DNA of 64,000 nucleotides from positions 71,982,001 through 72,046,000 of the forward strand of contig OX638154.1 in NCBI GenBank assembly GCA_951804945.1, in the 5' to 3' direction. The position numbers and the translations under genes were made by a program. Under the pieces are notes generated by a model. It was not told the DNA's origin, did no database searches, and was given only the letters and a program-made list of their open reading frames with translations. Source of the DNA: Podarcis cretensis. Its lineage: Eukaryota. Numbering within the stretch: position 1 is the stretch's first letter; the number at the start of each line of letters is the position of its first letter. Positions 1 through 58,453 of this stretch are shown in pieces.

Positions 1-218
1 AATGCAATTCACTATGTCTGGGCTGCACTAACAGCGCATAAGGAAAAGTGATTCCTGACTAACTTATTGTTCTAGCCTAGAGCTCTTGGGGATTGCAGGG
101 AACTTTACCATAAATCGAATTTAACAGAGCAGAAAGAAAAGGGGGGGGGGGACACACACCCTGCTTCAGCAGACTGAGCCCCCATTTACAATTCTCTCCT
201 CTTTCCTAATCTTTGCAG

Positions 219-566
219 CACAATCAGAAGGGAGACCCTGTGAGTACAACTCCAAAATCTACCAGAACGGAGAAAGTTTCCAGCCCAACTGCAAGCACCA
301 GTGCACATGCATCGATGGAGCGGTTGGCTGTATCCCGCTGTGCCCCCAAGAACTCTCCCTTCCTAACTTGGGCTGCCCTAACCCAAGGCTAGTGAAAGTC
401 CCTGGCCAGTGCTGCGAGGAATGGGTCTGTGATGACTCCAAAGATAACCTGGATGACTTGCAAGGTTTCATGGACAAAGAGTTTGGTCAGGATGCTTCCG
501 AAGGAGAGCTAACCAGGAACAATGAGCTCATAGCCATCGTGAAAGGAGGGCTGAAAATGTTACCCG
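219..566 (+). CDS. CCN1: CCN1/CYR61 coding exon 3 (vWC domain + hinge); gene is 5'-partial in this window
   Basis: Acceptor ttgcag|CA, donor CCCG|gtgagt. Translates [72 protein letters not shown]...[20 protein letters not shown], the CYR61 vWC/hinge sequence. Exon number taken from the known orthologue structure. Confidence 0.97.
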
Positions 567-768
567 GTGAGTTTTAAGATGACCAGGGTCATGTTGTTCT
601 TCTGCCAGGGAGGGGGAGGGGGGATTACCACTGGAAATTCTTTCGTGTGGGGGATTATCTGTCTACAGTGTTTTGCTATGCATGTTGATGAGAAGAGAAA
701 CAAAGAGCTCGTAAGAATGAGAAATTTATACTGTTGTTTTCTCTCTCCCCCCTCCTTTTTTTTTAAAG

Positions 769-971
769 TCTTTGAATCTGAGCCACGCACTCACTCCTTT
801 GAGAACCCAAAGTGCATTGTGCAGACAACCTCGTGGTCCCAGTGCTCAAAGACCTGTGGGACGGGCGTCTCCACCCGAGTCACCAACGATAATCCCGACT
901 GCAGACTAGTCAAAGAGACCAGGATATGTGAAGTGAGACCCTGCGGACAACCCAGCTACGACTCCTTAAAG
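769..971 (+). CDS. CCN1: CCN1 coding exon 4 (TSP1 domain)
   Basis: Polypyrimidine tract + aag| acceptor, donor AAG|gtaaaa. Translates [47 protein letters not shown]. Phase is consistent with exon 3. Confidence 0.97.
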
Positions 972-1089
972 GTAAAAACAACACAGCCCCCTTTACGGTC
1001 CCACAACAATTCCCAGGTCGTTTTTGGGTGGAGGGAGCCTTTTAGCTGGAATTGCAACCTAACTTACGCTGTTGATCTCTTCCTTCCAG

Positions 1090-1389
1090 AAGGGGAAGAA
1101 ATGCACTAAGACCAAGAAGTCCCAAGAGCCAGTCAAGTTCACTTACGCAGGTTGCTCCAGCGTAAAGAAGTACCGGCCCAAGTACTGCGGCTCATGTGTG
1201 GACAGCAGATGCTGCACGCCTCAGCAGACCAGGACTGTCAAGATCCGTTTCCGCTGCGACGACGGAGAGACCTTCACTAAGAACGTCATGATGATCCAGT
1301 CTTGCAGATGCAACTACAACTGCCCCCATGCAAACGAGGCCTATCCTAATTACCGGCTATTCAATGACATCCACAAATTTAGGGACTAG
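1090..1389 (+). CDS. CCN1: CCN1 coding exon 5 (CT cystine-knot domain) to stop TAG
   Basis: Acceptor ttccag|. Translates [42 protein letters not shown]...[12 protein letters not shown], the diagnostic CYR61 C-terminus. Confidence 0.98.
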
Positions 1390-6780: not shown

Positions 6781-7352
6781 AGTCAGGGTACACCATAAAA
6801 GGCAGTATAGAAGCCCCAAACGTCTGCCTCCACAGCCACAGGGGGATATCTCTGTCTTTATTCAAGGAAACGGCAACACTTCCCAGCAAGTCTTGCCCCT
6901 GTGGAGCAGTTGCCAGGACTGAAGGGGCTCCCGCCTTCCATTCTTTCTAAGGCTCCTCCTCTCCTGGATGTTTCCCAAGCAGTTTCAACCTGCGTCTGCA
7001 CACCTCTGGTCTCTGTTCTGCCCTCCTCATTATTCTGCGCGTTCTTAGAGACCGGGGGAGGGGGAAGGGAGCTTTTCACAGCAGGAGCGGGAGAGTCCCT
7101 GGCTTCTTCAGCAGCCTCTTAAGCCCCCTCCTCTGCTTCAGCCTTGGAGTCTGAACTGCTCCCATTCACCAGCTCTTCCTGCTCACTAAACCCTGTTGCC
7201 CCTTCAGCACCTTCTCCCAATCCTCTTCCTCCGACTTCTCCTCAGTGTCCCACCACCAATCCCCTGGCTTTGAGCCTTCCTCCTCTAGGGTTTCCCTTGG
7301 GGGTTCCCCGACTGGTGTCTCCCTTCACTCTTCGTCCACCCAGTCCCTGACA
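6781..7352 (-). mobile_element. Degenerate solo LTR (probably Gypsy-type)
   Basis: Minus strand starts TGTCAGGGAC. The other end (agtcaggg at 6781) is its near inverted repeat. AATAAA on the minus strand (6857-6862) and purine-rich U3. No TSD found, so the left boundary is uncertain. Confidence 0.65.
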
Positions 7353-18289: not shown

Positions 18290-18789
18290 AGTCAGGGACC
18301 ATGCTGAGGACTGCATTGGGGAGGAATGGTGGGAACCGCCCCCCCCCCCTTGCCCTGCTGCTTCCAGGAGCAGGAGGACAGTATAGATTCGGAACAGTGG
18401 TTTGCAGAAGGACATAGTTCAGAAGGCAGAAGCTGGAAAGTACTGGAGGGGGAACAGCTAGGAGGAGAAGCACTGGGAGAGAGTTAACAGATGCACTGTC
18501 TCTAGAAAGCATTCACCCATTCTGCCCAAGGTCAAGAAAAGCAGATAAGGTGGCAGCACAGAAAGCACAGTGGTTACAAGACCAGGTTACAAGACGTGGT
18601 AGTGATGTGGGTGATTAGGGAGGAAGTGGGTGGGACCCTTAATTGGGAGCACCTTCATTCCTAGGAATGGATTCTTTGTTCTCTCACCGTGATCATTAAA
18701 GGTTATAACTGGTAAGAAGAGACCTTTCTCTTTGTTCTGCTTATCTATGGCCAAAGGGTGGGGGGGAGCTGATTCCCTGAAGCCTGACA
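18290..18789 (+). mobile_element. Solo LTR (probably Gypsy-type), 500 bp
   Basis: Termini (a)GTCAGG...CCTGACA; perfect 5-bp TSD tcatg at 18285-18289 and 18790-18794. Purine-rich 5' half, ATTAAA at ~18695. Confidence 0.8.
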
Positions 18790-27106: not shown

Positions 27107-27231
27107 CGTGGCCAAGAATCACCATATCCGTCTGGAATTTCTTCAAAACAATATGCAAAGTTGGGTATTCTATGACAACCTTCCCTTTCAAATTGTCTCG
27201 AAGGCCTTTGCTGGCATCCAGTTCTTCGTAC
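27107..27231 (-). CDS. ZNHIT6: ZNHIT6 exon 9
   Basis: aag|G...G|gtaaga, 125 nt. Translates [41 protein letters not shown] (conserved BCD1 IEYPTL motif). Confidence 0.93.
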
Positions 27232-27880: not shown

Positions 27881-28354
27881 GTAATTCAGTTTGTATGCTG
27901 TGCTGTACACATGGAGGCACATTCCAGGCTGCCACTGGAAATCCCCCAAAGCTCATTCAAGTATTTGAAGCAGCAATTGCATGCCCACAGCTCAACATTC
28001 CGTACCAATGTGCAGTTCTCCTCTGGGTTGTTGGCCTCTGCCTCGAGACACAAACAGAAAAAAAATGGTTCTTTTTTAGGCTCTTTGACATAACTTGGGC
28101 TGCAGGCATGTATCAAACTTTGGTTTTGCAAGTGATGTGGATATATATCACCTCCAAGTCTTTTATGACTCTTTTTATATTCCTCTAGCAACAAGAGTGA
28201 CTTGATTAAACCCAATAAATAATCCAACTATTTTAGGCACGTCCAAGCAACGTGAGGTCCTTTGGGACCTGGAAAAATGGGGGTATAATGGGGGCGGGGA
28301 ATAACAGGGGGCGATAATGCATGCTGCACCGATGTGCACAGGGACCAGATTCCC

Positions 28355-28963
28355 TGTGCTGGTCCCGTGGGATAACCATGAGGCATGGTCCGAGTCCAGT
28401 CCTAGGTCGAGGGTGCAGTATGGAGGCAGTCCATCAAAGTTGAAGCTGGGTTCAAGGCAGGGAGTCGGGTGAGGTCAGGAGCTCTGGCAGAAAAGCAGGA
28501 CAGGGTGCAGGCAGGAACTGGCTACCAACAATGTTGCAGCTGCAACTTGGGACTGGGGCTGGCTGGCTTTTATCTGCCCCGAGGCATAGTGCGGCCCCGG
28601 TCCCCAGGTGACTTGCCTCTCCTGGAGTGGAGGTGAGCACTCCTCCTGCGGGAACTTAGTTTCCTCCGCCTCTCTGCCCTGAGCCTCTGCAGCTCAGGAG
28701 AGGCTGGAGGGTTACCGGACCCAGAGGGAACCTCAGCTTCCCCTGACGGGGCTGAGAGTGAAGCACCTGCAGGCAATGGGTCCTCCATCACCTCAGGAGC
28801 CAGAGCAGACTCAGCTGGTGCCTGCACCTGAGGATCCAGCACAGGTGAGGACCCTTCAGGCTCAAGCCCCAGCCCTGGCTCAGCTGGTTCTGGAGGCGGA
28901 GAATCCTGTGCAGGCTGGGATTCCTCAGGTTCAGCCTCAAAGTTCAAATCCCAGGCCATCACA
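28355..28963 (-). mobile_element. Solo LTR (probably Gypsy-type), 609 bp, with an open reading frame across U3
   Basis: TG...CA termini with short TIR (tgtgctgg/ccatcaca); 5-bp TSD ttccc at 28350-28354 and 28964-28968. TATA-like gataaaag on the minus strand at ~28567-28574. Confidence 0.85.
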
Positions 28964-29953
28964 TTCCCTGTGCAAAATGGTTGCAGCCTATATAAAATTG
29001 CAACTTCCCAGCCATGGCACCTGTACACCCTCCTTTGCTGCCCACCAAGGCTCTCCCATTTTCTATTTAAAAAAATGGGGGGGGGGTGTTACCAGTTTTG
29101 GGGAGTGCTGCCTTCTTCATCCATTTTATTTGTTTTAGTGGGATGCAGGTATTTCGTGTGATCTGGGCATTACAAGTTTTTCTTCTGTGAAGAAATGTGT
29201 CCTGGGCTCAAAAAGGTTGGGAACACATGTTTACAAATAGCTCAGTCATTTGAGGGAGATATATAAATGCTTCCTTAAAAAAAAATAAAAATCCAGTAAT
29301 CGGGGTATCTTCTATCTGACTTTAGTGTACACGACATTAATTAAGAACTATCGTAGTTAGATGGCAAAGGTAGGATAAAATTATATCAATATACATGTGC
29401 AAAACTTTGAAAGTTACAGAACGGCAGAATTATGTAGCAAAACAAAACCAGAAATCTAGTTGACGAAATTAAGAACTATTTGTTTGTGGAAATAGAATTT
29501 AAAATGTCATAACTTCATAGTATAATCCACAGCTACTCACACCAGCAGCTCCAAACTAAACTCCCAAAAGAAAACCTCATTTTATTTGTGTGTTCTGGCT
29601 CATCCATGTGACTTGGATTGGCCAGCCAATTCCATATAAGGGAGACTTTCTCCTTCTTGGGAGAATGCATTCAAAGCCAGCAGCAGGCATCATCATAGCA
29701 TTTCAAAATAACTGAAGTAATCCTAAGAACTTAACTGTGCCTATTCCTAATAATTATTACATAAGCAAGCTACGGTCCTTCCAGACCTATACATTTCAAG
29801 AGCAAAAAAAACAACAACAAAGAAAACTTCAACTCCTAAGGCTATTAATAGCCAACACTATCTCAGCAATTACTTCAAAAAAAGCAAAGTGAGCTGTAAT
29901 TCCTCAATTGCCACCAATCTACTAAATCCAGTGAATAAAAAGTTTAGATATAA

Positions 29954-58346: not shown

Positions 58347-58453
58347 CACTTAGAAGATTTAAATCACTGAACTCATTTATGGAAACGAATGCTGTCTTTT
58401 CTCTTACTCCATTACAACTGAATGCAGTCTTATGTTGCTTCACGCAAGCCAAA
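58347..58453 (-). CDS. ZNHIT6: ZNHIT6 exon 3
   Basis: ttcag|T...G|gtaaga, 107 nt. Translates SLACVKQHKTAFSCNGVREKTAFVSINEFSDLNLLS, completing the zf-HIT domain. Confidence 0.95.

Follow-up and report, generated by a model that had tools for sequence, protein, structure and literature searches.

The window analysed here comprises 64,000 nucleotides of Podarcis cretensis contig OX638154.1 (assembly GCA_951804945.1, positions 71,982,001 to 72,046,000 of the forward strand), and all coordinates below refer to it. At its start lie what we take to be exons of CCN1/CYR61 (125-1389, plus strand), and about 27170-58420 of the minus strand is presumably occupied by a ZNHIT6-like gene with exons near 58416, 56743, 46437 and 27170. 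A solo LTR of 609 bp with TG..CA ends is found at 28355..28963 on the minus strand; it is intronic, with the exon near 27170 following about 1.1 kb downstream, and shares the orientation of the ZNHIT6-like gene. These ends and coordinates are exactly as given in a preliminary description of this DNA, as is the 5-bp target-site duplication (GGGAA/TTCCC), of which both the 5' copy (28964..28968) and the 3' copy (28350..28354) read GGGAA on the minus strand. Sequence reading, together with relatives at 92-94% identity, assigns the LTR to one subfamily (subfamily A) of a Tf1/sushi-type chromovirus, and its divergence from these relatives is ~6-8%.

The sense frame of this LTR is open from LTR nucleotide 2 for 130 codons (28570..28962, minus strand, as for all features of this LTR) and ends in a TAA that falls inside, and overlaps, a TATA-like box, GATAAAAG (28567..28574), again as first described. 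In copies that retain internal sequence, the integrase frame carries on past the chromodomain as this U3 frame. The encoded peptide was correctly described as bipartite, although its acidic, Pro-rich part, put at ~95 residues, has 87 (28702..28962), since S88-P89 already open the basic part. This acidic linker has no Pfam family, and its length varies by whole codons between subfamilies. It is followed by SP and a basic, probably helical segment (codons 88-105, 28648..28701; helix predicted from sequence), the SP lying 16-18 residues ahead of the motif in three element lineages, and then by an RRSA(H)L motif (codons 106-111, 28630..28647). The His codon is CAC (28635-28633), at the position of the HMGN arginine anchor, and most copies have CGC (Arg) there, which fits the CpG-type transition proposed for it. 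Young copies carry a self-primer complement ~30 nt downstream of the TATA-like box, which, by analogy with Tf1, would mark the transcript start. With the anchor arginine replaced by His and the frame placed upstream of its own promoter, the window copy is a fossil and likely silent, not the functional module that it had been proposed to be.

The nature of the element was read from copies with internal sequence. A pattern joining the polypurine tract to the LTR start occurred at 47 places, and the 35 with the common tract were taken with 8.9 kb of context. Complete elements are about 5.5 kb long with an internal region of about 4.4 kb, and in 16 of the 35 copies full-length LTR pairs are 97.6-99.4% identical, indicating that the subfamily we call B is young. 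Pfam searches of an internal-bearing copy found capsid, zinc knuckle, protease, reverse transcriptase, RNase H and integrase in one frame, in the Ty3/Gypsy order Gag-PR-RT-RH-IN, with a Tf2-type SH3 (GPF/Y) domain (PF24626) and then a chromodomain (PF00385) at the integrase C-terminus; the same searches of the internal region returned no envelope family. No tRNA primer site follows the 5' LTR, and the sequence there shows a 10-nt complement to the LTR from nt 361-391 onward in all six copies tested, as in self-priming elements. Reading the element as an endogenous retrovirus was rejected, as there is neither an envelope match nor a tRNA site and the ~4.4-kb internal region is filled by gag-pol. 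Measured against the clade marks given in the accessible portions of PMC6317226, these data confirm a lizard Tf1/sushi-type chromovirus (Ty3/Gypsy). Like the vertebrate Tf1/sushi elements of the V-clade (Sushi-ichi, Amn), it has a single Gag-PR-RT-RH-IN frame with SH3/GPF-Y and chromodomain, no envelope match, self-priming instead of a tRNA and a 5-bp duplication; what it has in addition is a tail of 115-143 residues after the chromodomain, wholly within U3 and ending in RRSARL. Of the relatives examined in fish, frogs and fungi, most either end close to the polypurine tract or have a short tail that lacks the motif. Its nearest named proteins, at 93%, are from Podarcis, and in a short tree of 30 integrase ends the squamate elements form one group (support 94) among frog, fish and other chromoviruses. 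A degenerate chromodomain pattern matched 16 places against 9 in the control, and about ten of these places are old, broken chromoviruses, too decayed for phase or motif to be read.

Exact matches to the first 15 LTR nucleotides numbered 2,802 in the genome and none in the control, so that the family has at least 2,802 LTR starts. The first 100 of these as listed fall in the first 16.2 Mb of the largest contig, where their density is ~3x the genome mean of 1.9 per Mb; such enrichment at a chromosome end could arise by targeting or by retention. Ninety copies, chosen by the first 15 nt alone, were taken in genome order. The U3 frame is open for at least 100 codons in 65 of them, against 2/90 and 0/90 for the other two sense frames, which rules out an open frame by chance and establishes genome-wide the intact frame that had been read from a single LTR. 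Fifty-four copies are open through the motif; with two intermediate copies dropped, the remaining 52 fall into subfamilies A (25), B (16) and C (11), whose frames are typically 130, 115-120 and about 143 codons long. LTR lengths range from 566 to 776 bp because of 84-bp tandem duplications, which were seen downstream of the promoter (U5) in some young LTRs (L063, L066, L085, L090).

Selection on the frame was measured from pairwise rates between natural copies, with within-family diversity subtracted and open copies only (52/90). Net dN/dS was 0.38 (0.23-0.60) between A and C and 0.39 (0.22-0.63) between B and C, and 0.57 (0.32-1.10), not significant, between A and B. The shifted sense frames gave 0.98-1.50, and only the in-register antisense frame mirrors the signal. 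Because the first alignment was protein-guided, the comparison was repeated with DNA-only alignments, where third positions were the most divergent in all six comparisons; for A-C, net divergence across the last 36 codons was 0.13/0.003/0.33 at codon positions 1/2/3. Both the dN/dS below one between subfamilies and the codon-position bias that the preliminary description had looked for in a coding U3 were thus found, and purifying selection on the U3 frame between subfamilies is confirmed for two of the three pairs. Within families, dN/dS of 0.63-0.80, among copies preselected as open, is close to neutral decay after insertion. An indel-length test on pairwise DNA alignments was set aside, as gap placement was too ambiguous.

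For 34 of the 35 internal-bearing copies it was possible to place the end of the chromodomain. In 16 of these 34, its frame is in phase with the U3 frame with no stop before the LTR, and in 11 of these the reading continues unbroken as far as RRSARL. Internal-bearing copies of this class, the largest, have one Gag-PR-RT-RH-IN-chromodomain frame continuous into U3. In the copy searched, Pfam places all domains in a single frame ending in the tail, and Podarcis muralis gene models contain the same chromodomain-U3 fusion. Reading of pol across the polypurine tract, one of two routes of expression suggested for the frame, is thereby upheld in these copies. In the remaining 18 the two frames do not match: 13 stop at or just before the LTR start and 5 run in the third phase, so that the end of pol differs from copy to copy. 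Read-through was seen almost only in the young subfamily B. For subfamily A, to which the window LTR belongs, there was no complete element among those found, and one short A-like remnant is in phase. Some Podarcis muralis models (P0002, P0003, P0116) splice the 5' LTR U3 frame onto gag and are probably prediction artefacts.

The difference in phase was traced to a homopolymer just upstream of the polypurine tract (L061-L095), the longest that the element contains. Relative to the copy used as coordinate reference, its length is off in 19 of 31 copies, in both directions; shorter runs are off in 0-2 copies. When phase is mapped on a tree of 33 of the 34 copies, built from 0.8 kb of neighbouring sequence and omitting the shortest remnant, 13 changes are required; shuffled phases require 14.2, and 62 of 200 shuffles were as low. 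Two lineages, with and without the tail, are ruled out by this tree, and the lack of clustering indicates recurrent slips. Assembly error as the only cause is likewise ruled out, as short-read contigs also hold the homopolymer in several lengths, in four of six other DNA or unlabelled runs. The shorter form was dominant in one short-read run from another organism (depth 690/734), which implies that tail-less elements are common, and mixed or minor in three others; one run gave a single contig across the junction without a gap. Tail-less elements may also be mobile. The out-of-phase copies and the run dominated by the shorter form speak most strongly against the tail being strictly required. 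RNA bears on translation neither way: one single-cell run placed 33 reads on the stretch, 32 of them only partly and none across the junction, and the contigs of one presumed RNA run did not bridge it.

The anchor codon, present in 76 of the 90 copies, is CGC in 40, CAC in 19, TGC in 11, CGT in 3 and another codon in 3. It is CGC in 31 of the 35 internal-bearing 3' LTRs, and Arg stands at the anchor in 20 of 21 young subfamily B copies. CpG decay of CGC yields either CAC or TGC, and Arg is mostly kept, so the His of the window copy is decay; at family level RRSARL is intact, as the preliminary description had supposed, with an RRSxR[LI] core and its three arginines. Chromoviruses of Anolis carolinensis (clusters of 94 and 366 sequences) follow the order of the Podarcis tail, namely chromodomain, junction string, acidic linker (of other sequence), SP, basic segment and RRS[AL]RI, the last in 14 of the 15 chromodomain-tail members among those listed. 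Judged by the G-D/T-S/V-M junction string only, these and the further tails named below would lie inside the LTR.

The chance of RRSxR[LI] in a shuffled tail is 0.0001-0.0004. The motif was present in 4 of 69 chromovirus matches, all squamate, in 2 of 79 distant representatives (0.078 expected; 2 of 2,000 shuffles as high) and in 1 of 91 of another set of relatives, and most fish, frog and fungal chromoviruses examined are without it. As most relatives and one old lizard family do not have it, the motif is dispensable for chromoviruses in general. It recurs in lineages whose linkers share little else, with the S, the last R and the aliphatic residue kept while the neighbouring basic residues vary; on the integrase-end tree an RRSxRL-type motif needs five changes, and it may have been gained or lost several times. 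Elements placed with those of frogs have tails ending in RRSARIAARV and RRSQRLATRDSL within a few residues of the junction, and RRSARLAAAH occurs in one unplaced element (such tails are among proteins P0258, P0263, P0212, P0148 and P0161); acidic tails are present in Rhineura and Salvator elements. A metagenome scan gave no relative for the DNA context of these further tails. The peptide alone, searched against a protein collection, gave 146 candidates, none at E 0.01 or better; the tail matched no Pfam family at E up to 1 and gave no usable match in the ESM Atlas. Structure prediction for H2A and H2B together with 38 residues of the tail scored 0.02 against a mark of 0.34 and bears on binding neither way; AlphaFold 3 also fails on the HMGN2-nucleosome complex, according to the accessible text of PMC12487698.

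In the same text, HMGN2 and Dsup bind the acidic patch through an RRSAR-type core whose last Arg is the anchor, and according to a model this binding is blocked once the Ser is phosphorylated; yeast Dot5, with RRSARIAT, needs all three arginines (PMC13347269, in its accessible part). The Podarcis RRSARL and the Anolis RRSARIA match the core of HMGN, Dsup (RRSSRLTS) and Dot5 (RRSARIAT), in what appears to be a disordered segment. Similarity to the HMGN family ends after six or seven residues, and the motif stands here at an integrase C-terminus. KSHV LANA, HCMV IE1 and foamy virus Gag are Arg-anchored acidic-patch tethers (PMC9040877, portions available), and what the tail would have in common with them is a small peptide, anchored by Arg, through which a foreign genome or an integration complex is tied to nucleosomes, although their sequences differ and are carried by Gag or nuclear antigens, not by integrase. 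In plant CRM elements of group A, pol extends into the 3' LTR and a putative targeting motif (CR) replaces the chromodomain (PMC3059260, available part). The lizard element shares this entry of the pol frame into the 3' LTR, but keeps a canonical chromodomain with the LTR motif added after it, self-primes where CRM uses tRNA-Met, and shows no evident centromeric concentration. Extension of pol into the 3' LTR is thus already known from CRM group A, whereas an HMGN-type motif in a retrotransposon, a real feature of this family, was not found reported. In the open literature covered, including the accessible part of PMC3601003, no vertebrate chromovirus was found described with an HMGN-type motif or with a tail encoded in U3, subscription papers (e.g. 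Butler et al. 2001), repeat-library entries and supplements lying outside that scope. The word 'retrotransposon' does not occur in the available portions of the viral-tether review (PMC9040877), and by title none of the RRSARL literature matches listed is on retroelements.

We conclude that the U3 frame is very probably a C-terminal tail of integrase and not a separate accessory gene. On the genomic RNA, U3 would be present only at the 3' end, directly after pol, so that a ribosome translating Gag-Pol would run into U3 and stop at the TATA-like box. Integrase made in this way would carry, behind its chromodomain, the linker, the basic segment and a terminal RRSARL. The flexible acidic linker might let the motif reach the histone face while the chromodomain holds the H3 tail, and the last Arg would engage the acidic patch, so that the integration complex would hold the nucleosome at a further point in addition to the chromodomain, with an effect on integration efficiency or site choice. 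Since U3 is duplicated in the two LTRs, a silent copy of the tail survives in every solo LTR. Given an integrase tail, we consider it reasonably likely that RRSARL binds the acidic patch, bearing in mind that the motif has six residues and that Arg-rich strings serve many purposes; taken as a whole, an integrase tail whose RRSARL binds the H2A-H2B acidic patch is the reading to which we lean, if only slightly. Identity and conservation of the motif are what suggest tethering to chromatin.

The tail could be real and its basic end serve otherwise, as a nuclear localisation signal, a DNA- or RNA-binding patch or a kinase-controlled docking site for another host factor. Yeast retrotransposon integrases are known to carry C-terminal basic signals, which speaks for localisation; moreover, the motif sits within a longer basic stretch (RLRAERRRE..RRSARL.ARRG), and the third LTR family of the window has SPRSRR..TRRGS without RRSxRL, as expected if charge alone mattered. 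Against this, it is the S, the last R and the aliphatic residue that persist from lineage to lineage as the basic residues around them change, and a plain import signal would not need RRSxR[LI], the pattern tested in HMGN, Dsup and Dot5. We regard such a role in place of acidic-patch binding as possible but rather unlikely.

Far less likely in our view is a free accessory protein started at the ATG at LTR nt 5, the second route of expression put forward in the preliminary description. Its expression by termination-reinitiation on genomic RNA might be allowed by the overlap, in the out-of-phase class, of the pol stop with this ATG (TGATG), which 12 of 34 copies have; that class, however, is not a lineage. 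The position of the ATG is kept in Podarcis, Anolis and several other tails and some automated gene models start there, but such models are predictions, and the two other acidic-frame LTR families have no ATG at this place. TGATG is moreover the usual terminus of plant CRM LTRs (available part of PMC3059260), so that the integrase attachment site may by itself account for the ATG. Nor can the LTR's own promoter transcribe the frame, which ends in the TATA-like box. Hardly more credible is an incidental frame, in which a GC-rich U3 without stops by chance is conserved for promoter or RNA reasons and pol ends at the LTR start. The 13 of 34 copies that stop there, and the long antisense frame of the window LTR, would suit it, but against it stand a third-position excess in DNA-only alignments, dN/dS below one only in the U3 frame and its in-register antisense shadow, length differences of whole codons between subfamilies and retention of the motif at protein level in Anolis; selection and the Anolis results have largely refuted it already.

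For an integrase tail with an HMGN-type end, the six-residue motif and the solved nucleosome structures of HMGN2 and Dsup allow a direct and cheap test. If binding is true, a retrotransposon integrase would have its own acidic-patch anchor, parallel to LANA, IE1 and foamy virus Gag; to our knowledge, integration-site choice of vertebrate chromoviruses is largely untested. A vertebrate LTR whose U3 is under protein-coding selection matters for LTR evolution, and for annotation, as thousands of solo LTRs carry a pseudo-gene of 120-140 codons that gene predictors already pick up. A wider scheme, which we offer tentatively and think doubtful as a whole, is that squamate chromoviruses, and sporadically amphibian-like and other ones, made the U3 promoter region code for an integrase arm that mimics HMGN, with chromodomain and acidic-patch anchor co-reading one nucleosome to steer integration, and that the homopolymer switches the arm on or off from copy to copy, keeping tethered and untethered integrases in one family.

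Two other LTRs in the window had been described as having the same layout. One, at 6855..7352 on the minus strand (left end approximate, 3' part missing), belongs to an older, unrelated family; the other is a solo LTR at 18290..18789 on the plus strand, also of an older family, with A instead of T as first base and a TCATG duplication. Neither has DNA similarity to the LTR at 28355-28963. An acidic frame starting at nt 2, about 110 codons long in relatives of the third (open for at least 99 codons in 9 of 30 copies), does exist in both families, but the window copies are broken by stops or frameshifts, the third by a frameshift. An RRSxRL-type ending holds for the second family, where an RRSLRL-like string follows SP after 16 residues: 19 of 30 copies read SLRL, and the residue ahead of it is variously R, H or C. 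It fails for the third, which has SPRSRR and TRRGS. Internal matches of the second family are too decayed for phase or motif to be read; in two copies whose LTR start is related (L239, L243), a broken chromodomain precedes the LTR, from which LTR-encoded tails seem general in the chromoviruses of Podarcis cretensis. Both families are high-copy, with 2,968 and 1,990 first-look candidates, and their acidic U3 frames contain Trp.
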